Below are positions 343 to 52,100 of a DNA stretch of 64,000 bases, piece by piece. The notes beneath the pieces were generated by a model. It did no database searches and had not been told where the DNA came from. It was given only the letters and a program-made list of their open reading frames with translations. Made by a program: the position numbers and the translations under genes. Each line of letters starts with the position of its first letter. Positions within the stretch are counted from its first letter, which is position 1. The DNA lies in assembly GCA_976226885.1 (NCBI GenBank), contig OZ320320.1, positions 67,828,001-67,892,000 on the forward strand, given 5' to 3'. Origin of the DNA: Iphione sp. A-MEVVRFRX5 (lineage: Eukaryota).

Positions 343-1056
343 CTACAGGGGAGTGACATCTGAGGATGACGGGGTGGAGACGCCGCTCCAACCCGAGTCT
401 GATGACGTAGCTGGACGTCGCCCCTTAACTGGTTGGAGTTTGCCAGCCGAAGGTCGGCGGACGGTTAGTGGCTGCACGGAAGGCCAGTCGGGAGCTTCCA
501 TCTTCGGGGAAATCTTCATGCCTCCACCCAGGGGAGCCCCCTTCCCCCCCAGCTGGGCCAGGGTAGGGGTGGCCATCGCCTCTCTCGGTGGAAGCTCCTC
601 TTCCTCGGCCTCATCTTCCTCTTCATCAATGATAATAGGCTGGTGGGTGGATGCCCCAGCCCTAGAAGAATGGGCCTGGATTCTCTGGTTCCAGGCCTCC
701 TGCTCTTCCTGCCACTCGTGCAGCTCCCTCTTCCGTTTCTTCACTTCTGCAGCCTTTTGCACTTCTAACTCCTGCTTGAGGTGCGTCGAAAGGGGCAAGG
801 GACTTCCAAAAGTCAGCATATGCCCCCTGAACCGGAGATACTCGACATCAATACTGTGTCCCATAGCCAGATTGTGGTGGACCAATCGCAGGTGCCTGGT
901 CAGGTCCCCTTGACGCTTGAAGGCCCGACCCTCACAACGCGGATCGGGACACCTGCACCCAAACCCCTCGGTTTCGTGCACGTCCTCCAGGTGCCTCCTC
1001 AGGCAGTAGTGATTGGCAAAGGTCTTCTTAGAGAATTGGCATTTAAAGGCCTCCAT
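343..1056 (-). CDS. Accessory two-finger C2H2 zinc-finger protein of element 1 (237 aa from agcATGg; second Cys of finger 1 changed to Ser)
   Basis: MEAFKCQFSKKTFANHYCLRRHLEDVH-ETEGFGCR-CPDPRCEGRAFKRQGDLTRHLRLVH, followed by a charged helix, a basic patch and an acidic tract. Aligns with the ZF ORFs of elements 2 and 3. The frame is open upstream to about 1515. Confidence 0.8.
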   Translation of the reverse strand: MEAFKCQFSKKTFANHYCLRRHLEDVHETEGFGCRCPDPRCEGRAFKRQGDLTRHLRLVHHNLAMGHSIDVEYLRFRGHMLTFGSPLPLSTHLKQELEVQKAAEVKKRKRELHEWQEEQEAWNQRIQAHSSRAGASTHQPIIIDEEEDEAEEEELPPREAMATPTLAQLGGKGAPLGGGMKISPKMEAPDWPSVQPLTVRRPSAGKLQPVKGRRPATSSDSGWSGVSTPSSSDVTPL

Positions 1057-1886
1057 GCTACTGAGCGTATCAGGGAACGTTTGCTCCTGCGGTGGTCGGT
1101 TGATTCCCCGCACTTGGGCTGGGCTCCCCTCGCACCTCCTGGCGGCCGGGGTGATACACTGCCGCTGCAGCAAGTCAAGGTAGGAGCCACCGACGTGCCT
1201 CCTGGTGGCGGGGGGTGATGCAGGACCCCACGGGTAGGTTCCCCGCACTTGAGTCGCACTTGTCCGGCCTCCCGCTCTTCGCACGTCGCCTAAGCGAAAC
1301 CCCTCACGTCGAGCAATCCTTATTTCACCAAAGCGAGGGGTTAATTTGCGGGGCTGGAATTTACGTGGGGTTTGGCCTGTTCCTCGCCCAAGTGCGAAGG
1401 TCAAGGTCACTCCTCCCACGTAGGGTCCGGTCGATCGCTTCGAGGAATTATCCGTTCCCCGGTGTGCAAATTGCCCTTGCGCCTCGCACAGGAGTCCTGA
1501 CTTGGGGCCGCGCACAAAGGCTTCCTCTGCAACATTGAAAAGGGCGCCAACGGACTTTTCTTCTCTGTTAACCGGTCGGGCGTCCTCCTTCCTCGTGAAT
1601 TTTCCTTCAGGGCTCGTAGTTCAGTAACGCATGCTGCAGAGGGCGCCCCCGTCACGTTTCCTGCTTGGTTGATGCAGTCTCCATGAGATGCCGACACTTT
1701 GCAGGTTTTTTGCTTCAGCCGTTCCCTGCACGGTGGCAGCACCCCTGAGTCGCACCACGCTTCGGGGATACGCATGCCCGGTGTCGTTTGACACGGGGAG
1801 TGACTCGTCGATGGCATGACGTGCGAATTAATCACCGCACATGGTAGGCTTGTTTTAGGTTTCTCCGCACTGTCCAGAAGTCGCCG

Positions 1887-2531
1887 CACGTCTTGCTTCG
1901 CCCCGCAACCCGGGGCCCCGCTCAACCAACGGGGTGGTCGTGCACGAACCCGCAGCGTACGCCCCGCAATACGGACTTGCCTGATTTCCTCCTGCCGCAA
2001 TACCCTTGCATGACCAACTTCCTTGGATTCTTCTACTTCATGAGCTTTCTTGAGTAGGTCTTCATGCACCACCTTCACTGATCTTCCTTTCTGCATTCTC
2101 CACACGTCATTCTTCGCCCCGCACCTTGGGGCCCCGCTCAACCAACGGGGTGGTCGTGCGTGAACCCGCAGCGTACGCCCCGCAATACGGACTTGCCTGA
2201 TTTCCTCCTGCCGCAATACCCTTGCATGACCAACTTCCTTGGATTCTTCTACTTCATGAGCTTTCTTGAGTAGGTCTTCATGCACCACCTTCACTGATCT
2301 TCCTTTCTGCATTCTCCACACGTCGTTCTTCGCCCTGCACCTTGGGGCCCCGCTCAACCAACGGGGTGGTCGTGCGTGAACCCGCAGCGTACGCCCCGCA
2401 ATACGGACTTGCCTGATTTCCTCCTGCCGCAATACCCTCGCATAACCAACTTCCTTGGATTCTTCTACTCCATGAGCTTTCTTGAGTAGGTCTCAATGCA
2501 CCACCTTCACTGATCTTCCTTTCTGTATTCT
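1887..2531 (-). repeat. Three tandem 216-bp copies spanning the integrase C-terminus of element 1
   Basis: The anchor cacgtc recurs at 1887, 2103 and 2319. The protein repeat VVHEDLLKKAHEVEESKEVGHARVLRQEE...PPRW is visible in ORF 1407..2432. Confidence 0.93.
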
Positions 2532-5500
2532 GAATACCACTAAAGATAGCTTCTTCTCTATCCTCCAGGGGCCGGTCCACCACCTTTCCAGTTTGGGAGA
2601 TCTTCCAATTTTCTTCTGTGGATGAAACAGCCCAATCCCCCCATCCGGAGATGGGATGGCGGCTGTGTTCCCCCTGTCTACTGGCGGGACGGCGGCCGTT
2701 TCAACAGTTACCGACCCCAACTCTTCCGCCCCTGGCCCACTATTAGCTGGGGAAGGACAGGGCGTGGGGTTGCTCCCCCCGCCTGCTGGCGGGATGACGG
2801 CAGAATGTGGTGCTACCGCAAGCCGGCCGGTGGCCCCTCTGGCCACCGCCCCCCCCCGCTCTCAGCCCTCGCCTACTGTCTGTGGGGGCTGATAACACTG
2901 GTGGGCCAATCCCCCCGTCGGGTGACGGGACGACAGTTGAATCGACGACCTCGCAACAGCGGCCCTCTCAAGGTTCCAGCATAGAGGAGGTTGAGGCCCC
3001 GATCCGTGGCTCGTGCAAACGGCAACCTGGGCTGCTGCAGAAGCCACAACCCCCCAGCGGAACGGGAGGACCAGTGATGAGTACTTCCGCGTAATCCGAC
3101 AGGACAGTGACTGGGCTGAGCACTGGTACAGACAGAGGTGCCGCCGGCGATGGGACTGTTCCTGAGACATTGGAGCATTCCGGTTTGGCGGAATGCGGCG
3201 TGCGAGAGAAGGCCGAGTTGGTGGCACGTATGGAGGACTTTCCAAAATCTTCCGTGGGACCTCTTCTTGTCTGGTGGCCGTTTCTATTCCCAGGGGGTCA
3301 CTCTGACTTCTGAGTTCTAGGCGGTGGATGGTTTCCTCCCCGGGATCTTCTTCCTCCGACCTACCACACTGTTTGCACGTTACCCAGGACAAACCATCTG
3401 CATTTCCATGTTTCTTCCCAGGTCGATGTACAATAGAGAAGATGTAGCAGAATCTCTCCTCTAGCCAGTGCGCAAGCTGGCCTTCTGGCTCGTGGAATCT
3501 GCATAGTCACCTTAGGGAGTCGTGGTTCGCTCTGATCCGCACCTCTTGACCACCTAGATAGTGCTTGAATTTCCTCAGGGCCCACACTACTGCCAACAGC
3601 TCTCGTCTTGTCACAAAGTAGTTCCTCTCGGGCTTGGTCAACCGTCGGCTGGCATAGGCGATCACCTTTTCTTGGCCATCCTGCTCTTGGCTGAGGACCG
3701 CCCCTACCCCCACCAAAGACACATCAGTATCCAGGCATAGGGCTCCTCCAGGTCATGGGTAGGCGAGGATTGGTGCTCTGTATAGGCTCTGTTTCAATGA
3801 ACAAAAGGCGGCCTTACACAGGGGGCCCCAGTTGAACTCTGCCCCCTTCTCTGTCAGCTGAATAAGCGGCGATGCTATATTTGCGAAGTTCCTGACAAAG
3901 CTTCTGTAGTATGAAGTCAGGCCAAGAAAGCTTCTCACTTCGTCGATGCAGCCCAGCTTCAGCCAATGTAAGATAGCACGTGTCTTCTCGGGATCTGGTG
4001 GCACCCCCTCCTCGGACACTTCATGTCCTAAGTACCGCACTCGCCGTTGGCACAACTGGCACTTGGATGGTTTAATGCGCAGTCCTGCCTCCCAGAATCA
4101 CTCTAACACCTCAGCTAAGTTGGCATAGCTGTCCTCTATAGACCGTCCTAGGATGATCACGTCGTCGAGGTAGACCAAACATTTGTCTCCGACCAGGCCT
4201 CACAAAATGGCTTCTATGAGCCTCTCGAAGGTCGATGGCAGGTTGCAAAGGCCGAACGGCATGACTTTAAATTGGTAAAGTCCCTCAGTCGTACACACGG
4301 CCGTCTTCTCCCAATCTGGCGGAAGAACCTCGACTTGCCAGTACCCACTCGCCAGATCTAGGGTGGAGAAATATCTGGCCCCCTGGAGCGCGTCCAGTGT
4401 GTCGTCAATCCGGGGCAGTGGGTACGCATCCTTCTTAGTGCAACTATTGAGCTTACGGTAGTCCACACAGAAGCGAACCCCTCCGTCTTTTTTCTGTACC
4501 AACACAACAGGAGACGCCCACGGGCTGACGGAGGGCTCCAGCACAACCCTGTCAATCATCTTCTTAAGCTCTGCCTGTACCAGCGGCCGCTTATCCCTGG
4601 GAAGGCGACGTGTTCATTGTCGGATGGAGGCGTGACCTTGCGTCTCTATCTGGTGGCGAATCAGGCTGGTGTGTCCCGGTGGTCCCGAAGGTGTTTGAAT
4701 CACCTCTCGGTAGTTCCACAACAGCTGGTGTAGCAGCTCACGCTCCGCTTCCTGTACTTCCTCTGGCAGGGTTCCCAGGAGTGACTGGATAGCCAATTCC
4801 TGTTCGTCCGCGAGCAGCTCCGCTTCTACTCCACTTGATTTCTCTTCCACCTTCTGCCCCTGCTGAGCCAACGTGGACACCATTCCCACACACATTCCTT
4901 GATAAAGACGCATGGCCGCCTCCCCAGGGTTACAGGTAAGCACGCCGAATTCATCATTCTGGCCTTCCAACAGCGTCGACACAACTCATAGTCCCGATCT
5001 TTCCTCAAAGTCCAGAAGTCCTTCGACCACGAACCGTCCCACCGGTCCCTGTTGGCCCAGTTGGATGGGGAGGACTTGCCGACAACGTCCCTCGATGACT
5101 ACTAATTTCTTCAAGAAGGCCCGATTTTCCTGATCTGGTAGACGCACCATAATCTCACTGGAACCCGTGTGCACCGCAGCCTCCCATCTGGTCAAGGTAA
5201 CCAGTCCCAATAGCCCTTCTGCTTCAATGATGGCGACCCGCGCATTCACTGGTAGCTGAACTTGGCCGAATTCCACTGTTAGCTTGACTTCTCCCAGAAC
5301 CTCCAATGGTTTTCCATCCGCACACAACACACGGCCCTGACGAGGAAGTAAGGGAATTCCCCAAAGCTGCTGGTACACCTTCTCAGACAAAACTGTTACT
5401 GAAGCCCCAGTATCCACCAGCCAGTTCATGGAGATCTTCTGAAGACAAGCCGGCAAACTCCAGCCCTTGGTGATGTCGTCCCATGTCGCCTGTAGTCGAT

Positions 5501-5620
5501 GGAGAGGTTTCATGTCGTAGGCCAAGGCTGTGAGGTGTTCCAGCCACTCCTTTCTTTCTTCAGTCAACCCCGCCCACCCTACTTCTCTGGGGCGGGCGGG
5601 ACGGCGTTTTCCGCTTGGTA
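2530..5620 (-). pseudogene. pol: Degenerate pol (PR-RT-RNase H; integrase core missing) of element 1
   Basis: ORF fragments 4986..5645, 4614..4982, 4200..4559, 3753..4055 and 3507..3722 carry PR, RT and RNase H motifs (SPWASPVVLV, DAYPLPRIDD, TRRELLAVV) broken by stops and frameshifts. Confidence 0.9.
5570..5612 (-). other. Remnant -1 frameshift signal of element 1 (G GAA AAC plus 11-bp GC hairpin)
   Basis: GGAAAAC at 5612-5606, then CCCGCCCGCCC / GGGTGGGCGGG arms with the original gag stop at the 3' edge of the loop. Confidence 0.65.
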
Positions 5621-5632
5621 AGCCTTGAACTT

Positions 5633-6969
5633 CTAACAATCCCACTTAAAGTGCCCTATCTCATCACAGAAATGACACTTTCCCTTCCGCCCACGTGGCT
5701 GTGGCTTCTTCACCTCCCCGGCCGGCTCTGGTTTCAACAATTGCTGCAGGAGTTGTTCGATTCGTTCCAGCGTGGCCCCATCACTGGCTCGTGAGGTGGA
5801 GACCACTTCTGCTGTGTCCACCTCCTCTTCTTCCTCCGTTGTAGCGGAGATGCGATGCGTGCTTCCACGCTCCTCCTCTGCGTGGTAAAAGGAATCCACC
5901 AGCAGAGCCTGGGATAGGGCCCCCTGGAAAGTTGTGGCTTTACTAAGGGTGACTTGCTTGCGGACCCGCTTGTCCCGGAGTGCGCCCGTAAAATACTCCC
6001 GGCACATTCAATCTAGCCAAGGTCCCTCGGCCTCGGGATATGCTTGCCTGACAAGTCTTTCCATCTCTTCTGCAAACTGGTTCAGGTCCTCGTCCTTGCC
6101 CTGCTTCCGACTCTTTAGCTGTTGCTCAAAAAACCCCACGTGGTCCTTGGACATAAACCTCCGCTTCAGTAATTTCAGAAGCTTCTGATATGCCTGGGGG
6201 TCATTCTCGTCCCATGCCTCCATCCGCAGAATGGCTCGGGTGGACTTCCGAAGATTTATACGCATTTGAAGGGCCTTTTTGGGTTCGCTCCAATGGTTCG
6301 ATATGGCCACCCATTCAAAATGCTGTATATAGTCCATCAATGGCGTGGTCCCGTCGAACTGTTTGGGCTTGGTATGATTTCGTTTTGAGGCTCCTTGTTG
6401 CGCCGCTGCCTCTCTGACGCTAGCCATCAATGCCTGCGTAAGCCCCTGGAACAGGTCGTTGGCGACCGGAGGCATGGGATCGGACCCCGTCGTGCCGGCA
6501 TCCCGACGTGGAGGGTCATCTTCTGGGCTCCATTTCCTTCTTCCTCACTGTCGCCTGAGTTGCTTTCCCTATTGGTATCCTCCTCCGGCTCATCGTTGTC
6601 TGAGTTTGAACCCTCATGCTCTTCCAACCGAAATATACTAGGCTGGTGTACCACCTTTCACTCCTGATCTGCTCGACTCAGGGCCCCGCCTCCTAGTACG
6701 GGGTGCTGAGCCCCGCCCTGGAGTGATGGTGTGTGCGGGGCCACCCCGCTCCGGGGCGTGGGGTGCGAGGTTGCCCCGCTTCGGGGAGTCGAAGCAAGTG
6801 GAGTGCGCTCCTTCTCCAGATTATCCATGGTACTAGCTCCCGCTCTCCAATCCCAACGAGAAGCGGCAGGTTCTTCTCCTCCGGCGGTACCAGCGTACTC
6901 CTGGTCACCACCCGGAAGGATCCCACTGCTGCCACCAATGTTGTGGCTTCTGCCACTTCTCAAACTCAT
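5633..6969 (-). pseudogene. gag: Degenerate gag of element 1
   Basis: Starts MSLRSGR inside the LTR. Capsid motif KPKQFDGTTPLMDYIQHFE and a CCHC knuckle are present. In-frame stops at 6658 and 5633, plus frameshifts. Confidence 0.88.
6920..6937 (-). other. Primer-binding site, tRNA-Leu type (element 1)
   Basis: Plus strand ATCCCACTGCTGCCACCA resembles the 3' end of tRNA-Leu with CCA and lies 1 nt from the LTR edge. Confidence 0.85.
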
Positions 6970-7177
6970 GACGCGGGAAGGCCGGATAACAGTTGAAGAT
7001 GTTTATTGATCCAAAGCCAGAAAGCAACTGAACTCTACCCGCACGTCACCTCCTTAGATGCGGGGACATGCACGCATACAATCGCACACCCATACAATTC
7101 CTCGCATGACGCACATACCCGCACATTCATTCACCGTACTCGCAACCCCGCACACACAGCCCCGCACATACGCCACA
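6939..7177 (-). repeat. 5' LTR of element 1 (239 bp)
   Basis: TG...CA ends, adjacent PBS, AATAAA on the minus strand, six GCGGG motifs, flanked by ATAT at 7178-7181. The partner LTR is outside the window. Confidence 0.8.
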
Positions 7178-7511: not shown

Positions 7512-7824
7512 GGAAAAAAATCTGTACACAAAGAAACAGGGTGTCCATGGATGTGCGGAAAACAGCTCATTTTCCGGACTTCACATGCTGTGCAGAAAAA
7601 AATCCATGCACATGGGTACCGGGCCTCACTCGCAGTTCTATTTACCGTGGGAGGCTAGGAGGGAAATCATGTCATTAGTAAGAGATTTTGCAAAAACGCA
7701 TGGTTTTATCCTAGAAATCTGTAAAATTCCCACCATATGACTGCAATCCCATTCATGAGTAGTAATAAGTTGAACTACATTTACATGTAATTCTTCCTTA
7801 TGCAGCTGTTCAAAACAGGAAGTA

Positions 7825-8402
7825 CAGTAAAAATCCATTACAGCGGACACTGGCGGGACTGTCTGCAAAGCGTCCGTTGTATAGGGTGTCCGCTGTGTCA
7901 GAGCTACCCCTTCTCCTCCACCAATAACCAATACAGTTGACTCTCATCCAGGGCAACCATTCACCCAATGAGAACACCATTTTAAGAAGAGAAATCTTGA
8001 GCATTTTCCACCCCTGGGGGCGACCAACTCTTATGGGAGACCACCATTTTAAGAATGAAAGTGATATGTTTCACGTTTGAAAGGATATTTATTCTGTAAG
8101 GTGTGGGTAGAGGTGTTAGCATGAACACTCGTCTCTAACAAAGAGAGTAACAGAGGGTATCCACAGAATGATAATTCATACTTTGCAGAGAAAGAGGGAG
8201 AAGGGGATATCATTTCCATGTTCCGTGTCTGCTGTAACACTGTAAAATCAGTGTTTAGGACGTAAAACGAGTGTCCACAGGTGGGTGTCCACTGTACATG
8301 AGTGGTCCCTGTGTCCTGTGTTTTATAAGGGTTTCATTTGCGACTACACTAAAAGCCCCCGTAGAGAGAGTCGTCCGCTGTCCGTTGTGAGAGTTTTTAC
8401 TG
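7825..8402. mobile_element. Non-autonomous Tc1/mariner-pogo-like MITE (family A)
   Basis: TA|CAGTAAAAA ... TTTTTACTG|TA. Subterminal and internal blocks (gcgtccgttgt, gtgtccacaggtgggtgtcc) are shared with 16782-16962 and 37053-37768. Confidence 0.75.
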
Positions 8403-25300: not shown

Positions 25301-28300
25301 GTCTAAGCCCAGCCGTGCGTCCAGGTCCCTGGCCTCCTGGCTGAGGGTCGAGTACGATGATCCGGGCGTAGCAGATGACGGGGTGCCCAGGATTCCTGCG
25401 GTGGTGGCGGCTCGAGCAAGGGGGGACATCGTAGCGGTGAGCCCCTTTCCTGTAGTAGCCTTCCTCTTAGCTGGGGTCGGCGTCGCTGCTTCGCCTGCAG
25501 ACGAGATGGGGGAGGTGACTGGCTGATACCCCCCCGGCCCGCTCTCATCTCGCGTAAGTCCAAATCGTGGCCGGGCGTCCTCACATGGGAGTGGGTATAC
25601 CAGTGTGGTAACCCCTCCCCTTTTCCTTTTTCTCGACCCCCGTGGTGAGGCCGGGCTCGCGCCGCCCCCGGGGTGCTGACATTGGAGGTGGGGGACGCCG
25701 TCTGCTCTTCCTGGGCCGCCCGTTTGCGCTGCCTAGCTTCACATGCGGCTGCCACTCGCTTCAACTCAGGGGTGAGCCCTGTACTGGCCGGGGAAGAGTC
25801 CAGCCCATGCAGCCGTACATCCACTGACCGGCCTCCAGCGGAGCCCAGTCCTGACGGTCCAGCACGAGGGGAGCCTGGGGTCCCCTGCACGGTCGAGGTC
25901 ACAGCTTCCCCCTTGCTCCCTCGCGGCCGCAACTGCCGGTCGGACGCCTCCGTCGCCTCCTCCTCTTCGCTCTCCCCTTCGTCATCGTCCTCCTCTTCCT
26001 CCTCTTCAGATTCCTCCACCGCGGCCGGAGTGGTGCCAGAAGAGCTACTCCGTTGCCGCTCTCGCTTGGGACGTGGAGGAACGGGGTCCCCCCTCATCAT
26101 GGCTCTCTCCTTGGCCCGCTCCCATTCCTCAACTCGCAAGAGCCAGCGTTGCTCTTCCAGCCTCCGTTGAGGAACCCTTGCGTCGCGCCCCGTCTTCAGA
26201 TCGACGAAGCACAAGTCTGCATCCTGCCCCCACTCCAGGTAGTGGTCCCCGTCGGTGGAGTGTTGGGCCTTGAGGTGCCGCCGGAGGTCGTCCCGGCGCT
26301 TGAAGATGGCCCCGCGACAGCGAGGAGCGGGGCAACGCCGGCAGAACGCGAGTCGTCGATGGGTCCCCATGTGCCGCCGCAAGTTGCCCGGTCGGTCTGT
26401 CTGGTAGCCACAAAGGTTACACCCGTGGCTGGTGTCCCCGGTCTCGGCCATTTCCACGTTGTCGGGGGCCCCTGGTTCTGGTACGCTCCGCCCTGGGTGT
26501 AGAGGCCCGCCTCGTAACAGCAAGTCTGGTCGTAGGAACGGCGGGGGGGTGGGCGGTCTCCGCTGGCACGCCTCCGCTGTTGTCGTGCTCCGCCCGGAGC
26601 TCGTCTGCACGTCCCTCGAGGGCGAACTCCGCCGGCCTGGCCTCGGTTCGCTCCGCCCGGAGAATGAAGGGCTGCCTCGTAAAGGCAAGTCCGGTCGCGG
26701 GAGAGGCGGTCTCTGTCGGTGCGTCTCCGCTGTCGTCGCGCTCCGCCCGGAGCTCAGCTGCACGTCCCTCACGGGTGAACTCCGCTGGGCCAGGGAAGGC
26801 GATCTCCGCTGCTCTTGCTCCGCCGCTGTCGCACTCCGCCCTGGAAATGACCTCTCCGTTGGGGGAGCGTCTCGGTGAATGGATTGAACAGCCCACTCCG
26901 CTGCCTCGCGCTTATAAGCACCCGCCAACAGCTCCGCTAGTCTCTGATTGGCTAGCGGTTCGCGCGCTCGCCGCTCATTGGTCGACGCTGGGCGGAGTGC
27001 CGTCAGCCCCCTTTGAGCCCGCCCTGCGGTCTCCGCCGAGCGGAGAGGTTGGCTAACTCCGCCCGGAGACAGCTGCTGGGCGGACTCCGCCCGGGACTTG
27101 TCGCCTCGCCCGTCTTGGCCCCAGGGCGGTCGCCGACCTTCCAGCTGCCACTCTCGGCAGTGCCCTTCCCAGAGCTGGGCGACCAGGGTCTTGGTGGCTT
27201 GACCTCCATAGCGCTGGCGCAGCTTCCGGCATATTCCTCGAAATTTCCACAGTGCCAAACCGAACCGGTCGCGGCGACGGGGGCGTCCAGTCTTCTTCGG
27301 GGGAACAGTCTTCCTCGCCGTACGCCGGGGGCCTAGCATTCCCCGCGTCTGTCGATGTAGCTCCCGCAGTTCCTGGTTCAGCATCTCCGCCCAACCCCGG
27401 GGAATGCGACCCTGGGTCGGAGTCGGCCGTTCACGGGCGGTGCTCTCATCCCCTTCGGGGCCGGTTACCCGTCGCCTGTACCACCGAGGGGGTGGCACAC
27501 GGGCTGAGTGAAGTTCCATAGCGTCCTGACGAAGGACGTTCACTCGGCCGATCACGTCGGAATCTTCCCTCGCTTCTGTGGCAAACGCAGGCTTCAAGAG
27601 ATCGGCGTGGACAATTCGTTGTTTGCTACCTCGCCCAATGCGGTATACCACCGTACTGAGTCTGGCTCTGACCTCCCACGGCCCCTGCCAGCGGCACTGA
27701 AGCTTGGGCGAGCGTCCCTTCTTCTTGATAGGCGAGTAGACCCAGACGTTGTCACCAGCTCGATATTCCTGATGCCGCACCTTCTGATCGTACCAGTCCT
27801 TACGCCGCTCGGCTGCTCGCTGAAGTTGTCGCCGTACCGTTGAATGCGCCGTCACTAATCGATGGCGGACAGATTCCACGTATCCGTGCACACTCACCTC
27901 TGGTTCCCCAGGCGAACCGACCATCAACTCGACTGGAAGGGTGGTTTCCCGACCCAGGGTCAACCAGTTGGGGGAGAACCCCGTCGTGCGATGAGGAGTA
28001 GCCCGGTATGCTGCCATCACAAAGGGTAGTTGTTCGTCCCAGTCCGACTGGTCCTCCTTGACAACCTTGGCCAGCATTCCTGTCAGTGTCCGGTTGAACC
28101 GCTCCACCACCCCATCGCTCTGAGGATGGTAAGGAGTGGTCCGGGTCTTTTGAATCCCCAGCAGTCGCAGGAGCTCCCGCATCAGCGCAGCGTCGAAATT
28201 TCTTCCCTGATCAGAATGGAGAATGCGAGGAGGTCCGAACCGGCATACTACCTCCCTGAGGAGATGGCGAGCGGTCGACTCTGCATCCACTTCTGCCGCG

Positions 28301-31300: not shown

Positions 31301-34300
31301 TACCCACCAACTGCATCAGTAACTTTTCGAGCCGTTCCAATGCCGCTGAGTTGGTTTCCACCTTTCCACTGGGCCCCGATCCAGCAGCAGGCAGGGGGGC
31401 CGCCTCTACCTTGTGAACCTTCTTCGGAGCCGCCCGCTCCTGCTTGTTCTGATAATACGACTCGGCGACCTGAGATGCAGAGAGGGCCTCCCTGAAGGTT
31501 GTCACCCGCGCCTGGGTGACCCATTTACGGACCTTTTCGTTTGCGAGGGCCCCAACGTAATATTCCCGGCACATCCTGTCTTTCCAAGGCCCTTTTGCTT
31601 CCGGATAGGCCAATTGCACCAACCTCTCCACCTCGTCCGCCAGGTCTGCCAGGGCCTCCTCCTTCCCTTGCCGACGCCCCTTGAGCTGCTGGATATAAGC
31701 GTCGGTTTGGTGCTTGGACTGAAACCTCTCCGACAGCGCCTCCACCAACCTGGCATAAGCCCCGTCCTCCGCAACGTCAATTCCAGACCCCCGCAGCACG
31801 GCTCTCGCTGACTTTCGCAACACGATTCCCAGTTGTAGGGCCTTCTCCGCTTCCGTCCACTGATTGGCCTTGGCGACCAGCTCGAAATGTTGCAAAAAGT
31901 CTCGCAGTGGTGTGCTGCCATCATAGGTGTCCGGCTTCACCTGAGACTTCCGGGGCTGCGGGTCCGGGCGCAGCGCCGCCCGCAGCTCCTGTACGAACCC
32001 ATGCCAGAGGGGTGGCTCTGACGACACCGCGGCCTCTTCCTCTTCACCAGTCTGCTCACCGTCATCCTCGCCGGGTTCGCGGTCATTCACTTCTTCTCCT
32101 TCGTGTCCCGAGGCGCGTGGGGCTATGGAGGGGACAGGTAACTGATGTCCCTCTCCGGCCCCACCAGAACGTGGGGGATCTCCGCCAACCGATTCTCTCT
32201 TGGCCGACTCATCCGCTTCGCTTCCCCATAGCTCGTCAGCTGCGTCGTCCGGTAGCTCCGCCCGGAGCTTGCCGAACTCCGCCCACTCGGCGGACTCACC
32301 CTGCTCCGCCGAGTGCTCCGCTCGCCGCTCCGCCGAGTCGGCCTCCGCCGCTGCTCCGGTGGCGGAGATCCCACCGCTGCCACCAATTGTACGCCCCGAT
32401 CGAAGAGACATAACGAAGTAGTACGTTTCCGAAGTTTATTGCATGAAGTGCAAAACATGAATGACAATGGTCTCCGCCTTGAAGCGATATTTATAGTAAA
32501 CTGTAAAACTCTGCCCGGAGTCTAGACACTCCGCCCCAAATCTCCGCTAACTCCGCTAACTCCGCTACTCCGCCCACAATATACATGTTATCTTGGATCT
32601 GTAATATCTCTGTGGGCAGGAAAAGTAGAAATGTAAAATGTTGACGAGGTTGATAGTCTGGCTAGTCATGACCTCGTCGTCACCAGTTAGAGCATGCAAA
32701 TATACTCTTTGACGTCATGCTCATCTGGTGTTTTGTAAAATCAACTCGGCGATAGGTCAATTATTTTAGAATTCCTGACAACGACATATAGAGACAAACT
32801 CTGGGCAAAAAACAAATTTGTTACACAGTGTGTGAGTGAATCTTTCACCTGCTGTTGATCCGTTCTATAATCTTAGGGACCCAGCAATAAGACTTATAAT
32901 AGGCAAGACAAAGATGGGCATTATTTGCTATTGATGAGAAAGGTTATACCATTCAATCACTTCTGATGAGGAGGATTACCATTTGCTCACAATTTAGATG
33001 ACAGGTTATTTTTCTCTTTCGAGCAGTGTTATTTTTTTATAACATTTGTATCATTATCCTGTAACACATCAACCTTCACTTGTGCTTTCTACGTCGGCCT
33101 CTATTACTACATGGCTGTTTCTCTGTTTGGGTTGTCCCCAGAGTGCTGTCGCAGATCGCAAGCAGTACATGAAGCAGCATGATGTCGACCGGGTACAGAA
33201 TGAGAAGCTGTCTGAACTGGAGGAGGAGGAACGTGAGAAGAGGGAATACCTCAAGGAGAAGGCTAACGCTCAGCGTCAGGAGCAGGAGGATGAAATCAAG
33301 AAACTCAATGAGGTGAGTTCTGCCGGTCACCGGACCCTTCACTTGAGGGATGAGTGAAGCATCCAGACGACCTTTTCACCCTAAAGTCACTTAATCGCAG
33401 TTAGTTTGAAGCTGTTGTTATTTGTGATAAAACAGACCCGATATTTTTGGACCATGCAGTCCGTGTATAATGGACCAAGGAGGGGAGCCACTCTGGAAAC
33501 ACTGATGTCCGACCATCCTTCGGGATCTTAATTGTAGGTCTATCTGTTTGTAAACCATTTAGTCAAATGCACTGACTTTTAATATGATATCACCATATGT
33601 GGACTCTTGCTGCTTTAATTGGTGCTGTTTGAGGTGAACTAAGGGTAGCTTTTCTTGACTTAAAAAGTATCTGTCCTACCACTAGGAAGCGAAGAAAGTC
33701 ATACCTGAGTGCCCAGCTCTTAGAAGTTCATGGTAGAGTAGTAAGCAGCGGTCGTAGTGGCCAGCTGGTTGTTCGGAGGTTCAAGTTCTTATATTTTGTT
33801 CCCCAGCTAATCCTTAATGCCAAGTGCCACGCCATCCGTGATGCTCAAATCCTAGAGAAGCGCCAGATCAAGTCAGAGCTGGTGGAGGAGGAGCAGCGGT
33901 TGGACGCCATGATGGAGGCAGACAGGCTCAACAGCATCCAGGTAGAGGAGAGCATTAACCAGCGCCGCAAGCAGGACCGCATGGTAGGAGCCATGAAGGT
34001 CATGGAACAGATCCAGGAGAATGAGCAGGTACATACATTCTATCATATAGTCTATCATATGCTGTATCTGTCATACATTCTACCAATACATTGTCACATA
34101 TTCTTACATACATTTCCATGCATTCTTTTTATGATTCTATCTTGCATACATTCTATCGTACATTACGTCATGCATTCTGTCATACATCTGTCTCCATCAT
34201 GACATTCAGTCGATCCATGTCCCAACATACATTGCATGATCATCAGTCCAAAAGAAATGAACCATCTTAAGGACTTTGTTGTTTTGAGGTGTCAGTCTGT

Positions 34301-43100: not shown

Positions 43101-46100
43101 TTTAAGAATACCGAGAAATACATCCCAGTAACAACATTATCACAGTAAAACAGAGAAGTACATCTCTGGAGCAATCGAATTTCCAACTCTGAATATAGGG
43201 AAGTACATCCCAACCATAAAAAAAGGGTAGCTTATTAATCTGAAGAATCTGGGAAGTACATCCCTGTGTCAAAATGCAAGAGTGGTGGGACTTAAGGTCC
43301 AAGTCTCTGTGTAACTCACTGAACTGGAAGAACGTCCTTGTAGTCTAGCACCAATATAACTTATTTACATAGGGTGCCCATAGGGCACAGTCCGTAATCC
43401 TGGGACATCCGTTTCGACTCAGTTATCGTCTGTTCGCCATTTCCACAGTCCAACACAGCCGGTCTCACTCTTAATCCTCCAACCCGCCCCTTATGGGGGC
43501 GGTTGGGCCCTGGTCCCCGACAAAGGTCTCGTCCGCGGACAGGGAGGCCACCCCGTCTTCACTGTTCGTCACCATAACATCATTATAGGAGAGCCTCATG
43601 TGGGCTCCACCTCTGGCTCGCCTCGCTTGCCACCAGGTCCACACACTGGTCTGGGCCACATCCGGTTGGGGACTCAGTTCAGCAGAGTGGTCAAAATGGA
43701 CCTGGGGCCTTGCTGAATGTAGGCGAAACCGGATCCTCGTCTCGGCTGTCCTGATGCGCCAACCAGCTGGCGGCGCTTCCCCAAGGGTGAGGGCCCGACC
43801 GTAGGCCCACTCGATCAGCTCTTGTTCTTCCTCAGCAGACAGCACTGGCCACGGTGTTGGGGCCGTCGCTGCCCGAGGGGGACCGGCCCCACGTGGGCCA
43901 GCCCCTCCCTCACCTGGGCCCGGGGGAGCAGCACGTGGGCGAACCTCGTGAAGAACCTCTTCTTGCTCGCGGCGTGGTCCGGCCCCCGGCCCCGGAAGGT
44001 CATCGCGCGGGTGACGCTCGTGAAGGACGTCCATCTGGTCGCGCCGTGGTCCCGCCCCTGGTGTCGCTGTGTCCCGCTCGGGGGACTGGCGGCCGGCCGG
44101 ATCACCCTCCCCCCCCTCCTCCTCCGACCCATGGGCGCCGGTCGAAGGGGATAGGGTGGGCGGTCGAGGGCCAGGGGGGACCTCCTCGTCGTCGCCGCCC
44201 TCTTCTTCTGGTCTGACACCCGGCACGTCGTCAGCTCCGGCTTCCGTCTCTCCGAGGCCCAATAGTGTGGCCACGGCCTCGTCCACGGCTGCTCCCGTCG
44301 GTTGGTCGCCATTCCGGTCACCTCCGGTCGTCTGCCACGTCGCCCTTACCGGTGGCCTCCTCGGGGCCGATGGCCAACGTCCCCGCCCCCCCGGCCGGGG
44401 TAGTGGGCAGCGAGGGTGGTAAGTCTCTCTCCGAGAGGGTCACGGCGAAGACCCTCCCGGATGGTGTAGAGGTGGTAGGCTCCTCTCGTCGCTCGGACTG
44501 GCCCAACCCAGCCTGTCGGATGACCTCGGCCGCCTCCTCACTCCAGTCCGTGACAACTGACGAGGGGGAGGGCAGTGCTGAAGAGGGCTGGCTCCCGGCA
44601 CGGGGTGATGCTCGGTGCCGGAACCCGAGTCCCAGCCCCCTTCCCTTGGGTGCGCCGCAGTCAGTAGGAAGGAGCCATCCTCTCCCCGGGGTCGGGGGCG
44701 AGCTCCCCGGCAGGGACACTCGGGGGGAGGTGGCGGCAGGCAGTCCTCCGGCCCCTCCTGGGGCAACCTCTTGCTGGCGGTGGCGAGCCTCACTGAGCCG
44801 GGCGGCCGCGATCAGTTGCGGCGTGAGGCTGGGTGTGGATGCCCGGCTACTCGAGTCTAGGCCCCAGAGCTGAACGTGCGTCCCTGGTCCCGGCGACAGC
44901 CCCGGGCTCCCTGCACTCGTCCGTCCCTCGGGTAGGCTGACCGCTGGGCTGCCGGTACTGGATACAACAGGCTTCTGTGGCACCGTACTCCCTGCCTGTC
45001 CGGGGTCGGGGGTAGTCTGGCTGTCATCCCGCTCTGGCGAAGGGGTGGCCGGTCGCCCCCGTGCGGCGGATGCTCATCACGGCAGACGTTTCCGGGGAGG
45101 AGGGTTGGCTGAATCGCTCTCCAAGTCGCGAGGTGATGACGTCATCTTCCGCCGCCCCGTCGTCCGTTGCAACCCCGAGGTCGAAGGCTGAGGAGACGCC
45201 GCCCTGCCGCTGGAGCCCGACGTCACCACCTGTAGCTGGCCATCATCGGACGAGGTCAGCTCCTCTTCCACGTCGTCGCCTTCTTCCTCCGAGTCTTCCT
45301 CTTCCACCATCGACGCCGACGTAGTGCCCTTGGCTCGCTTCTTACTTGGCACGTCCTCCCCGCGAATCATGGCCAGCTCTTTTCTTCTTTCGAACGCCTC
45401 AAGTTCCTTCTCCTGTTCGAATTCCGCCTGCCGGAGGGGAGGGACTGGCACCACGGTGCCCGTCAACGGGCCTGCCTCTGTCGAAAACCTCATGAACTCC
45501 ACCTCGACATCCTGCCCAATCTGGAGGTAATGGGGCTGGAAGTCTTGGTGGACCCCTCGAAGGTGGCGCCGGAAGTCGTCCCGGCGCTTGAAGATCTTCC
45601 CCTTGCACCGCGGCACGGGGCAGCGCCGTACGAAACCCTCCGCCTCATGCACACGGTAATGGCGGATCAGGTTGGCTTTCCGCCTAAACACCTTCTGGCA
45701 TCGGCTGCAACGCGGCGACGGCTTCCTCGCAGGCATCTCTCTCCGAAGACGGCGACACGCGGGGCAGGTAGTATCTTCTCCGCGCGGGGACGGTACCGTG
45801 CGGGGTTGGACCACCCCGCCCGGGGTAACTTTCTCCGCGCGAGGACTGGGTACCCCGCCTGGGGCTCTGCTATGGTTATCCCCGCCCGGGGATGCGGCGA
45901 CGTTCCTGTCAAGGGTACTCCGCACCGGGGTCGCGCAGACCACTCCGCTCGGGGCGTTGGTCGACTCACTGAAGCTATCCCCGCCCGGGGATACACACAC
46001 GTTGATAATGCTTCGGCCTGAAACAATTCGTCCAGTCTTTGCTTCCTGTTGTAGGGGTACAGCTTGTTCGTCACCTCGATGGCGTCTCAACACAAGTGGC

Positions 46101-49100
46101 GGTCCCCGCGCGCACCTTTCCTTATATACGCCGCCACTACTCCGCAGTCGATTCTGATTGGTTGATTCAGATCTCGCGGTCAACGAGACAATGTTTCTCC
46201 GCGCGTAGTGCGGGTATCTGGTCTTTGCCGCCTTCTCTTGGTGCGGGGTCGTGGACTTTGCCCCTCCTTCGTGCGGAGACTTTGTCTTCGTCGATATGCG
46301 CAGTCGCTCTCCCCGCTCGTGGTGCAGGGGCGTGGACTTTGCCGCTGGGGCTCGACGCGGGGTCACGGACTTTGTCGTCCTCTCCTGCGGAGACCTTGTC
46401 TTGGTCGATGTCCGTGGCCCCCCCCCCGCTCTTGGTGCGGGTACCTAGACCCGAGAGATCGGCGGTAGCGCTCTTCGTTCAACTGGTTGAACTCTCGGAA
46501 AATTGCAGTGGTGGTAGACTTCCCGATCCTCTCTTCCATCTTGCGGCGTACTCCCTTTATCTTCCACATTAAGCGGCCCAAACGATATTTAGCGCCTTTA
46601 TCATTGAGGGACATGACTCCAGCCAAGTATGCCTTGCTCAGTAGGGGGGCTACTAGTTTAGCCCAGGCTCCTTCTTTGTTATTCCTTGGTTTCCACCTCT
46701 TATCCTTCTTTTGGGCGAGACAATCCTTCTTCTCTCCCGGAGGCCTGTACCACCGTGGGGGGGGGCAGTGTCCGGGCCGGAGCGTCAGGGCTTGCTCCGG
46801 TCCCTCAAAGGTCGATCTAGGAGGGGGGGGCCAGAGGTCCTTCTGTCCTCTCTGCTCCCCCGCGAAACCTGTCGTGGTCCCTCCTCCTGACCAACCCCCA
46901 CTACCAGTCCCCCCTCGTGGTGCCTCCAGCTCTTCCATCTCTTCTCGCCACACCGCGTGGACCACCCCTATGACGTTATCACTCGGGGCGGTTATTGCTG
47001 GCTTCAGTAGGTCAGCATGAACGACTCGCCGCTTCCTTCCGTGCGCGATGCGATAAATGACCTGAGACAACCGACTTTCGATCACCCACGGGCCGTGCCA
47101 ATGACGCTGTAACTTTGGGGAACGTCCAATCTTCTTCGTGGGGTCTAGTAGCCAAACGGAAGCTCCTTCCTGATATACGTGCTCCCGCACACGTCGATCG
47201 TACCAATCCTTTTGTCGCTCGGCACACCTCTTGAGCTTCTCCCGGGCGAGGCTGTGAGCTTGGATTAACTCCTCCTGCTGTCGATTGACGAATTCCCCTC
47301 GGGGTTCCGAGTCTTCTGGCGGCTGTCCAAACATCAACTCTGCTGGCAAGGTCGTCTCACACCCCAATAACAAGCTATTGGGAGTCAGACCCGTCCCACT
47401 GTGAGGGGTGGCCCGATAAGCAGCCAGCGCGAAGGGGATCTTCTCGTCCCAATCCCCCTGTCCTTCTTCCACCAGAGCAGCCAACATGCGGTTCAACGTA
47501 CGGTTAAATCTTTCCACCACTCCATCGCTCTGGGGATGGTACGGAGTGGTCCGGGATTTCTCTACGCCTAGCATCTTCAACAACTCGCGGAAGAGCGCCG
47601 ACTCGAAGTTCCTGCCTTGATCGGAGTGGACTATCCGGGGAGGGCCATATCTGCACACTATCTCCTTGAGTAACACGCGGGCTGTGGTCTCTGCCGTAAA
47701 ATCCGGCACTGGAAAAGCTTCCACCCATTTAGTAAAGTGGTCAGCCACCACGAGGACATAGCGGTTCCCTTGCCTGGTCTCTGGAAAGGGGCCGCTTACG
47801 TCTACTGCTACGAACTCCCATGGTCCAGCGATGGGTCGGGCCATGAGCGGACTCCTCTTCTTCACCCCCGGATCTTTGGTCTGTTGGCAAGTCAAACACT
47901 GCTGTCCCCAGCGCTCCACATCACGTCCTAGGCCTGGCCAGAAATACCTGATGCGCAGAGCACCTTCAGTCTTCTTCACTCCCAAGTGTCCTCCCAGAGC
48001 TCCGGAGTGCACCTGCTCCCAAACTTCTTGCCGTAACTCTGTAGGGACATAGGCTTGAGGGGTCTTGCTGCCATCCTCTCTGTCAAACTGCCGGACAAGG
48101 ATGCCATCCTTCAGTGTCAAACGAGGGGTCTCCCCATAGAGGCACCTCTCTTCCCGATTGCCCGGACTGATGGAACCATCCTGCTCCGGTGCGCGGCCCT
48201 GTTCCAGTGCTTCGATGATTTTTCCTGTTAGTACCTCCCGCCGTTGAGCTGCTCGGAGTACTCCTTCACCTACTGGCACCACCCTAACGGCACACACCTC
48301 TTCGGTTGCTTCGTCTTCTTCTTCCTCATGCCGACCACACTGAAGACAGACCTTCCTTGACAAGCCGTCTGCGTTCCCATGTAGCCGCCCCGGGCGATGC
48401 ACAATTTCTAAGTTGTAGGTGTAGACCTCTTCTAGCCATCGGGCTAACTGTCCTTCCGGTTCCTTAAAGTTGCAGAGCCAACGAAGAGAGTTATGATCGG
48501 TACGAATGCACACGTTCTGGTCCCCCAGGTATGGCCGAAATTTCCGCAGTCCGAACACCACCGCCAGCAATTCCTTGCGGGTGACGCAGTAATTCCTCTC
48601 AGCCTTCGTCAACGTCCGGCTTGCATAGGCTAGGACCCGTTCTTGTCCATCTTGGTCCTGGGAGAGAACAGCTCCGATCCCTCCTGCTGATGCGTCTGTA
48701 TCGAGGTGGAGTTGCCCCTCAGGCCGCGGATACCCCAGCACCGGTGCGCTAGTCATTCGCTTCTTGAGCTCTTGGAAGGCCTCATCGCATTGGTCGTCCC
48801 ACCGGAACTCTGCATCCTTCATCAACAGCTTGTTCAAGGGCGCGGTGATGGTAGCGAAAGCCCGTACGAAACTTCGGTAGTACGAACAGAGGCCAATAAA
48901 ACTTCGTAGCTCCGTCAGGCAACGAGGGCGTGGCCAAGTCTGTATGGCCCGGATCTTTTCAGGGTCCGGCCCTACACCATCAGCTGAGACCCGATGTCCC
49001 AGATACGCCACTTCCTCCTGGAAGAGTTGACACTTGCTTGGCTTCACTCTCAGTCCCGCCTGTAACAGCCTGCTGAACACCTCTTCTAAGCGGTCGACCA

Positions 49101-52100
49101 TTTCTTCCACTGTCCGCCCGATCACAATCACGTCGTCCAAGTAAACTAGACAAGTCTGTCCGTCCAGTCCTCGCAGCACTGCCTCCATGAGTTGCTCGAA
49201 CGTAGAGGGGGCATTGCAGAGGCCGAACGGCATCACAGTAAACTGGTACAACCCGGCAGAAGTACACACCGCTGTCTTCTCCCTGTCCTCCGGTCGTAAC
49301 TGTACTTGCCAGTATCCTGCCGCGAGGTCAATGGCCGAGAAGTACCTCGCCCCCTGCAGGGCATCCAGGGTGTCATCGATGCGGGGGAGAGGGTAGGCAT
49401 CCTTCTTGGTAACGCGATTCAGGGCCCGGTAATCGATGCAAAACCTCCAACCACCATCTTTCTTCCGGACCAGGACTACCGGTGATGCCCAAGGACTGGT
49501 TGATGGCTCCAGAACGCCCTTCTGTAACATGTCGTCCACTTCCTTCTGTACAGCCTTGCGCTTGGCCGGAGGCAGTCGTCGCACCCTCTGACGAATTGGA
49601 CGGTGCCCCTGAGTGTCAATATTGTGGACGACCACTTCAGTTCGTCCTAACGGCTCGTCTTCTCGCTGGAACACCTGGCTGCAGTGCGTCAACATGTCTT
49701 CGATGCACTGTCGCTGGGAATCGGATAGCGAGTCCGGCAAGGTTTCCAACAGTCCAGCCAGCCCGCGGGTGCTTCCTTCTTCGACCACTCGTGCCCGTCC
49801 GCATTCTTCTTCTTCTTCTTCGCCTGAGACTGGGGTCGCCACTCCTATGACTGTCCCCTCTCTCAACCGTATCCGCGTAGAGCCGGGGTTACAAAGCTGC
49901 AGCTGACCTCGTGTCACTCCTGTCTCCCACAGCGTCCTAGCTACACGGATTCCCGACCTCGCCTTGAAGCTCTCCGCGCCTTCCACTAAGACTTCCTCGG
50001 CGGCCCTGGCGGCCCCAACCAGCGCCGCCTCCACGTATCCTACGCATCCGCCTTCCACCGCTGTGTCCTCTACCAGACAGACTCGCCGTGACTCGCCCTC
50101 GCTGTCCTTCGGCACCCTCACTCGCAGCTCGGATGTAGAAGCGTCCAACAACGCCCTCCAATGCACCAAGGTGTCCATGCCCAGAATTCCGTCGCAGTCA
50201 ATGTTAGCAATCAGGACCTTCACGGAAACACACAGGGACTCGAACTGTACTTCCACCTCCGCTCGTCCTCCCACCTTCAGAGGCGTCCCGTCTGCACACA
50301 GCACACGTCCTCCTACTGAAGCTCGACCCTCAACGCCCACTGCTTCCGCAACTTTTTGACTCAAGATCGTAAGGGAGGCGCCCGTATCTACCAGCCACTT
50401 CACTTTTCTTCCTCGAATCTGGCTACTGAGGATGATGCCACGGCCAGTCCGGTCTGGGTCTCCTTCCAATACCACTTCCTGGCACTCGTCCTCCCCCAAT
50501 CGCAGTTGCCACAGATGATCCTCAGCAGGGTCTTCAAGTGTGGTGACGGCCGCCCTCCCTACTGCTGGGGAGCGGCCGCTGGCCCGTTTCCCGAGGTCGT
50601 GGCTGCAACCGATGTCGCCCCTTTATACTGCGGGCAGTCCTTCTTGAAGTGTCCCGGGTCATCACAGATGAAACAGCCCTTCTTCTTTCCCTGCCTACGT
50701 GCTCCTGTTCCCGCGTCTTGGCGCTTCACCAGCTGTCCCAGCAATTCTTCAATACGGCGCCACGGTTCGGCCGCTCCACTGGACTTGCCTTCGACGCTCT
50801 CCTCTCTGTGTTCAGCCACGTGTACCCGCTTCGGCGTGCGTTCTCTTTTGCTGTCATAGTACGACTCGGCCAGTTGAGCTTCCGACAGTGCTGTACGGAA
50901 GGAGGTGACCCGTGCCTGTGTTACCCACTTCCGCTCTTTTTCGTTGGCCAAGGCCCCAAGGAAGTACTCCCGACACATCCTGTCCTTCCACTGGCCCGTG
51001 GCCTCGGGATAGGCCAAACGGACCAATCGTTCCACATCATCGGCTAGGTCGGCCAGCTTCTCCTCCTTCCCCTGCTTCCGATACTTCAGCTGCTGCATGT
51101 AGGCATCGATCTGATCCGCCGGCTGGAACCGATCACGTAGGGCCTGGACTATCTTGTCGAACGCTCCGGGCTCTTCCACATCGACTTGTGCGTTACGCAA
51201 CGCCGTCCTTGCTGCCTTACGCAAGGCCACTCCAAGTTGTATGGCCTTCTCTCTGTCATCCCATGCGTTGGCCGCCGCAACCAGTTGATAATGATGGAGA
51301 AAGTCAGGCAAGGACGTCGTTCCATCGTAGGTGTCCGGTCTAATAGAAGTGCGACGGGGTCTCTCTGAGGGTCGGGCCACCCGCCTGAGCTCGTCAACCA
51401 GGTCCTGAATGAGGGGGTCCTCTTCCTGCCTCGGCCGGGCTTCCTCCTCATCACTGGACTCCTCTTCGGAAGATGCTACAGCAGCGTCTTCTTCCTCCTC
51501 TTCGAGTTCACGGGCTCTAACTGCTCGGGGTCGAGGTGCGGGAACGGGGGTAGCTGTTATCGCTCGCCTTTCCCCCTCCCCGGCACCTGTAAATGGGGAT
51601 AGGGTCCTTCTCCTCCTAGCGGTCTCCTTCTCCTCAGATCCAAGGGTACAAGCCGTGTCAGCACCGAACCTCGAAGGAGCCTTCTTCCCCCCTCTGGGGA
51701 AGTTCTCCGCTCGGCCTGACGACCCATGCTCTGCCCCTGGGTCCTCCGCCCCAATTGCGGGGAAAGGTGTCTCCGCAATTTCTGAGGGGTAAAGATGCTC
51801 CGCATCTTTTGAGGAGTAAGAGTGCTCCGCACGATCTGAGGAGTAATAGTGCTCCGCACGATCTGAGGAGTCGGTATTCTCCGCACCAGAAGGAGAGTCG
51901 ATCCCACCGCTGCCACCAATGTTACGACCCGATCTAAGCATTGCGAATAAACCGATGTCCACACAGAAGTAAAATAGACTTGTTGTTTATTCAAGAGCAA
52001 ACCGTGAACTGAACTGTGTCCCCGCACGCACTCCTATTTATACACCAGCCATAACGTGCGGGGTAACTAACTGCGGAGACATTTACTCCTCAAAGATCGC

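Follow-up and report, generated by a model that had tools for sequence, protein, structure and literature searches.

The window analyzed here is a stretch of 64,000 nucleotides from Iphione sp. A-MEVVRFRX5 (assembly GCA_976226885.1, contig OZ320320.1, positions 67,828,001 to 67,892,000 of the forward strand). It contains three gypsy-type long terminal repeat (LTR) retrotransposons, all on the minus strand, here named element 1, 2 and 3. Each of them carries a C2H2 finger pair after the integrase (IN). Further traits of Ty3/gypsy elements were present, namely paired LTRs (TG...CA), a primer-binding site (PBS) and a short target duplication. In elements 2 and 3 a gag with a CCHC knuckle is followed by protease (PR), reverse transcriptase (RT), RNase H (RH) and IN in this order, and element 1 is likewise composed but broken. 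We describe the anatomy and conservation of these elements and the motif arrays within them, as well as the covariation of the arrayed words between regions and families. Based on these data we propose that the finger pair probably belongs to a regulator acting on its own family.

Element 1 and its lineage

As a gypsy copy, element 1 is both old and broken. Its 3' LTR is found outside the window, approximately 3.0-3.2 kb to the left of position 1, and shares 88% identity with the 5' LTR; the LTR pairs of elements 2 and 3 are 100% and 98% identical, respectively. The PBS, which we take to be tRNA-Leu-like, has 1534 exact matches of its unaltered form in the genome.

The original prediction, made from the letters of the window, had described a GCGGG array in place of GCGGAG in element 1, an altered finger 1 and an intact finger 2, and had explained these by co-evolution of a factor with its sites. 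The observation was partly confirmed and the interpretation partly supported. Six GCGGG sites, located at 6973 (+), 7038 (-), 7060 (+), 7118 (-), 7147 (-) and 7161 (-), and no GCGGAG were indeed found in the 5' LTR. Dinucleotide shuffles contained a mean of 0.57 sites and none of 1000 reached six. The cluster behind the PBS was found as well (6 sites versus 1.4 expected, p 0.001). The one in front of the finger gene is present but weak (5 versus 2.0 expected, p 0.035). As to the shifted word, proposed as GCGGG[G/T], the GCGGG array is real, but the site at 6973 is GCGGGA and is located 3' of the polyadenylation signal in the opposite orientation. The T of the 7038 site occurs only in the 5' LTR of element 1, with G in its own 3' LTR and in five relatives; the word of the lineage is therefore GTGCGGGG.

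Both helices read as described before, NHYCLRR in finger 1 and RQGDLTR in finger 2. Among the closest relatives of element 1 (the best 29 of 150 listed, 77-85% identical) finger 1 had N-1, Y2 and the second Cys in 29/29 and R3 and R6 in 28/29, with synonymous variants at each of these positions. The sole exception at +3 and +6 was the nearest relative of element 1, which is decayed too. Asn at +3 was present in none of the 29, and a consensus with R-1/N3, which would have meant mere decay of this copy, was absent. The departure from R-1/N3 is thus lineage-wide. However, the copy in the window stands alone with its Cys at +3 and with a Ser where the second zinc ligand should be, and the lineage residue is Arg3 rather than a lost Asn3. 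Across 13 copies of the lineage, GCGGAG was absent from the LTRs and GCGGGG occurred 4.7 times per LTR. Since Arg is a guanine reader and Asn an adenine reader in the recognition code (PMC12264921, excerpt), GCG-GG-N is predicted for the lineage, and Arg3 suits the shift of the word from A to G better than the loss of Asn does.

Finger helices and words across families

Searches with the finger unit over the 1.18-Gb genome yielded 1,700-3,200 candidates each, of which 150 were scored per search. A total of 140 stretches of 5-10 kb were taken either from the finger searches or from among the first 100 of the 1534 exact PBS matches, and families were sorted from that part of them which had retained PBS, LTR and parsable fingers. 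The best-preserved copies carried one frame of approximately 2,200-2,700 codons from the protease through the fingers. Trees of RT-RH and RT-IN separated the clades A, B, C and D without resolving their branching order, and we therefore assign no direction to any change.

Finger 2 kept R-1, D3 and R6 across 22 families, and the LTR words GCGGAG, GCGGGG, GCGAG and GCGGCA/T varied with finger 1. In the aligned sequences (26, with 51% mean identity) D3 and R6 were invariant and R-1 was found in at least 90%. Background density of the words was 0.03-0.36 per kb, compared with approximately 9-31 per kb for the top word of a family in its LTRs when two clade C finger-1 outliers are excluded. Hence a family-specific short motif is present at high density within the elements. 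The enrichment is confined to hexamers, as GCG counts alone did not exceed those of dinucleotide shuffles. Three sister families with the same PBS that lack this finger pair had 0-1.8 GCG per LTR versus 5.8-15 in families that have it. One sister family with a CAC-PBS carries a different two-finger frame, so these families serve as controls for this finger pair only. In a sister gypsy family the LTR has no GCG, and a sense frame of its own, approximately 7.0-7.3 kb after the PBS, encodes a two-finger C2H2 unit of another kind.

Clade A and B families with N3 and R6 had GAG as the top word after GCG in nine of ten cases. In clade D, which carries R3 and includes element 1, a middle G was found in 4/4 families: GGG after GCG in the NHY and NQY families, GGG, GGT or AGA in the IQY family and AG(G/T/C), i.e. 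a shift to GCGAG, in the K6 family. A putative N3/H3 sub-family within the IQYRLER family was rejected, since the variants were single copies and 25 of 27 copies have R3. In the recognition code Arg or Lys read G, Asn or Gln read A and Asp or Glu read C (PMC12264921, excerpt). As a setter of the middle base (Asn for A, Arg for G) finger-1 position +3 fits 9/10 A/B families and 4/4 D families and fails in 7/8 clade C families with Asn3. A finger 2 of R-1/D3/R6 together with GCG in the word agrees with the code throughout, with the exception of the ELEGMYE/ALDAMYQ group.

A partial Mantel test with the tree distance removed compared finger distance and motif distance in 22 families, a set that excludes element 1 itself and two families lacking an RT-RH stretch. 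The finger-1 positions -1, 3 and 6 gave r 0.37 (p 0.001) versus r 0.11 (p 0.11) for positions 1 and 5. Of 400 triples drawn at random from the other finger columns, 2.75% reached r 0.37. Taken singly, the best column was position +2 of finger 2, which is known to make cross-strand contacts (PMC12264921, excerpt). The helix-motif correlation that the original prediction had proposed to look for across families is present. This covariation is real and suggests causal co-evolution.

The word is shared by separate regions of an element. Outside ELEG/APDT and element 1, the linker from integrase to finger 1 had the same top word as the LTR in 17/19 families, and the leader did so in 12/19, compared with 4/18 for core pol and 5/18 for the tail. 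LTR and linker shared no match longer than approximately 30 bases, except for one weak match of 65 bases. Such a joint change of the word in non-homologous regions indicates one family-specific reader. In clade B, 6-7 GCGGAG per kb were found even within RT-IN, approximately half to two thirds of them as in-frame Ala-Glu and the rest in other frames or on the other strand; coating of the entire element by GCGGAG is possible in this clade.

Within the linker, 40 of 48 clade A/B copies carried a module of CCAAT, 9-11 bases, GCGGAG and TATA, with the TATA occurring in all three reading frames. Clade D showed site clusters in the linker despite the lack of this module. A Met at most 40 codons from finger 1 was present in 106/115 copies versus 98/460 control windows. 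The fingers are followed by a basic/helical segment and a long low-complexity tail.

Furthermore, an abundant non-autonomous family has RT, RH and IN deleted and has kept gag, protease, the internal module and the finger frame (up to 1350 codons). It shares its LTR with an autonomous family of different finger-1 helix (RHANLLR). In ten copies its fingers showed 17 synonymous versus 7 replacement variants over 100 codons, a pattern of purifying selection as judged from these counts.

The features of the three elements are listed in Table 1. The finger frame of the element 3 copy in the window (45077-46444) is out of frame with pol (46363-50622); many genomic copies of this type have a single frame of 2382 codons instead. 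A short dispersed repeat starting with GTACAGTAAAA, probably the end of a small DNA transposon, was found at 7822-7905, 16779-16862, 37050-37133 and 37663-37746.

Table 1. Features of elements 1 to 3 in the window
Feature	Positions	Strand	Remarks
Element 1, 5' LTR (TG...CA)	6939..7177	-	six GCGGG sites; TATA box gone through 10-base deletion
Element 1, PBS	6920..6937	-	
Element 1, leader	6683..6845	.	GCGGG cluster
Element 1, gag	5633..6544	-	interrupted by stops
Element 1, pol (PR-RT-RH-IN)	2337..5435	-	broken; 6 stops within first 730 aligned codons
Three tandem 216-base units	1881..2528	.	GCGGG-rich; integrase end and linker
GCGGG cluster upstream of element 1 finger gene	1057..1400	.	clade without CCAAT-TATA module
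Element 1, finger 1 (NHYCLRR)	976..1041	-	Met 1054-1056; +3 residue and second zinc ligand unlike relatives
Element 1, finger 2 (RQGDLTR)	877..951	-	R-1, D3, R6
Element 1, open frame	343..1620	-	both fingers, basic/helical segment, acidic tail
Element 2, fingers (RPGNLRR, RRDDLRR)	26260..26421	-	in frame with pol
Element 2, internal CCAAT-9-GCGGAG-TATA-like module	26910..26951	-	
Element 2, 5' LTR	32388..32578	-	six GCGGAG; identical 3' LTR 23736-23926
Element 3, fingers (RKANLIR, RRDDFRR)	45548..45709	-	
Element 3, internal CCAAT-11-GCGGAG-TATATAA module	46120..46161	-	
Element 3, 5' LTR	51920..52152	-	four GCGGGG and two GCGGAG; 3' LTR 42830-43062; main counter-example

A putative self-encoded regulator and its alternatives

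The two-finger C2H2 protein encoded behind the integrase would bind a GCG-based word in the LTR, leader and linker of its own element and, acting in trans, would turn on or keep open the transcription of its own family. Finger 2 would read the constant GCG, and finger 1 together with finger-2 position +2 would specify the variable half. Clades A and B may make the protein separately, from the candidate internal promoter of CCAAT, site and TATA and starting at the Met just before finger 1, which would close a feedback loop. Element 1 would represent a decayed member of a clade with Arg3 for Asn3 and GCGGGG as its word. We regard such a self-encoded, family-specific regulator in trans as probable. 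That the finger protein binds the sites of its own family is highly probable, while an activating or anti-silencing role with co-varying sites is, by a modest degree, to be expected.

Several results weigh against this explanation. The element 1 copy is decayed and is poor evidence taken alone. GCGGG is not tied exclusively to the changed finger: element 3 has R-1/N3/R6 and yet four GCGGGG and two GCGGAG per LTR, and its family, whose helix is identical to that of a pure GCGGAG family, carries 3.6 GCGGGG versus 1.6 GCGGAG per LTR. In clade C the rule of Asn for A fails, as Asn3 is kept and GCA or GCT is on top in 6/8 families, GAG in 1/8 and neither in 1/8. HPSNFKR and HQSNLNR have the same contact residues and different words. 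Families with ELEGMYE (alike in 20/20 loci) or ALDAMYQ in finger 1 have no GCG-G array though finger 2 is kept. The LTRs of these families, with finger 2 unchanged, are rich in GTGCAT/GTGCTT instead. If motif distance is taken from an anchor-free profile, 10% of random column triples do as well as the contact triple, and a correlation is seen at non-contact positions too (r 0.18-0.23). The five words scored by region were picked after the LTRs had been seen. The CCAAT-TATA module was found in 0/34 clade D and 0/33 clade C copies. Finally, the tree holds one independent contrast for +3 (N3/R3) and two for -1, numbers with which a sign test is impossible. Of the co-evolution proposed originally, the covariation of helix and word across families stands; the single N3/R3 contrast, the element 3 family and the middle C next to Asn3 in clade C limit its causal part.

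The same few contrasts, the change from A to G without a change of helix in the element 3 family and the C next to Asn3 in clade C would also agree with a finger protein that binds a GCG-G core through a permissive finger 1. The variable half would then drift by tandem copying and clade history, and the tandem duplications with their 216-base units do carry sites. We consider this explanation unlikely, as linker and LTR words switch jointly in 17/19 families though the regions are unalignable, R3 is kept with synonymous-only variation in 28/29 and 25/27 copies and the K6 family shifts the 5' base.

With lower probability still, the arrays could be sites of host factors (Sp/KLF, Egr, E2F or bHLH types) that differ by family, the finger protein serving some other function. 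The words are GC-box-like, a clade C family with LQSNLNR has CAGCTG arrays, a TTCCCGCG site is present in the U5 part of the clade D LTR (window 6970-6980) and a sister family has CCAAT arrays (seven CCAAT boxes). The TTCCCGCG site, the CAGCTG arrays and the CCAAT boxes are candidate host-factor sites. However, finger 2 invariantly encodes residues for reading GCG, in agreement with the constant half of the word, and the arrays are missing in families without the finger pair.

A protein that binds its own sites as a repressor or copy-number brake appears improbable to us. Sites do flank the TATA box, and in LTR and leader they are also found downstream of it. This explanation is less easy, because the placement of sites inside the internal module, with CCAAT on one side and TATA on the other, the 8-10 sites per LTR accumulated in young families and the retention of the finger gene by a non-autonomous family fit a benefit for expression better.

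Very improbable and largely refuted are fingers that steer insertion as an integrase tail, like the chromodomain of chromoviruses: they are in frame with Pol in intact copies (frames of approximately 2400 codons), but they are kept in the integrase-less family, and insertion at RTAY, the four bases before the LTR (T in 77/79 and A in 78/79 copies), with no clade word in the 150 bases before the LTR in 79 copies, argues against it.

The finger-word system is a real lineage-level feature that rests on few independent changes. LTR retrotransposons are generally thought to borrow the transcription factors of their host. With a sequence-specific regulator of its own making, a family could determine when it is active and withstand silencing, and thousands of genomic LTR copies would be linked to a factor made by the element. 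By what route a factor and the many sites it reads change specificity jointly has long been asked; here the question is met in more than 20 coexisting families. Predictable contact residues and an intermediate state, the element 3 family, make it testable with few natural domains. In its widest form the proposal describes a radiation of animal gypsy elements with private circuits, in which C2H2 activators under internal promoters would repeatedly have co-evolved with their sites into mutually insulated pairs that the finger code makes legible at the level of single residues. To this we attach somewhat less than an even chance. If true, nature would have provided a replicated experiment on the joint specificity change of a factor and many sites, and a two-promoter design like that of foamy viruses would have arisen independently outside retroviruses.

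Relation to known systems

The model of the element 3 finger unit comprises two fingers and a strand pair formed by the linker and a C-terminal extension (predicted local distance difference test 88). Its best Foldseek superposition was the DNA-bound two-finger protein Tramtrack (2drp; template modelling score 0.52-0.53, E 0.1-0.2), and none of the Foldseek matches reached E 0.001. Finger 2 aligns by sequence with finger 1 of Zif268, whose triplet is GCG. Both share a CX4C finger, R-1, D or E in the +3 region and R6 for GCG. Unlike Egr1/Zif268 and Tramtrack, the unit has a non-canonical linker (GFxRR or GFGWL), a predicted extra strand pair and is encoded by a mobile element.

Outside this genome, no relatives of the finger unit were found at E 0.001 among longer proteins. 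A further search returned four generic finger proteins, a profile search was dominated by many-finger proteins, and Atlas yielded generic C2H2 clusters. Among the best 120 public Pol relatives a C2H2 pattern was present in four. Five of 12 inspected Pol relatives (ENA proteins) had, behind the integrase, a Met and a two-finger-like unit of a different kind, so the finger layout is probably wider than this genome. In these ENA proteins a C2HC-like and C2H2 pair was seen with an acidic tail behind it.

Chromoviruses are Ty3/gypsy elements with a chromodomain as an extra 3' coding part. The elements described here resemble Ty3/gypsy elements with extra 3' coding in gag, the order PR-RT-RH-IN and an in-frame domain after the integrase. 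They differ from chromodomain elements in that the extra part has 370-1070 codons with fingers, a basic/helical segment, a disordered tail and its own Met. Unlike a targeting domain of the chromovirus type, the fingers do not predict insertion sites and are kept without integrase. In the open-access literature, at the level of abstracts and apart from repeat-database entries and supplements, no description of gypsy elements with a self-targeting C2H2 pair was found. A term search of the available part of bioRxiv 10.64898/2026.08.24.746577 gave no zinc finger, gypsy or LTR retrotransposon.

The foamy virus transactivator Tas (Bel-1) is encoded 3' of pol, has an internal promoter and has its targets in the LTR and the internal promoter; its activation is species-specific and its targets share little sequence (PMC7390438, excerpt). 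As far as described there, the finger protein resembles Tas in the position of its gene 3' of pol and in sites located in both LTR and candidate internal promoter. In contrast to Tas, the host element is a gypsy element without an env match, the putative regulator is of the C2H2 type and the same hexamer occurs in the LTR and in the candidate internal promoter. The candidate internal module, known here from sequence, is confined to clades A and B, unlike in foamy viruses. No env or Tas family was found among the Pfam matches of eight long frames scanned.

In VANC-type systems DNA methylation is lost upon action of the protein. VANC of the Arabidopsis VANDAL elements is family-specific and recognizes a dense short motif that arose partly via tandem repeats, for which co-evolution has been proposed; its specificity residues are unmapped in the excerpt of that study (PMC5735166). 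The likeness, within this description, lies in a family-specific protein encoded by the element and in a short motif built up densely and partly by tandem repeats. However, VANDALs are DNA transposons, VANC is not a C2H2 protein and the specificity residues of the present system can be named from the finger code. A VANC in a Mutator-type DNA transposon is not what was found in this window. By analogy, the system described here would work most like foamy virus Tas and like VANC, while belonging to neither.

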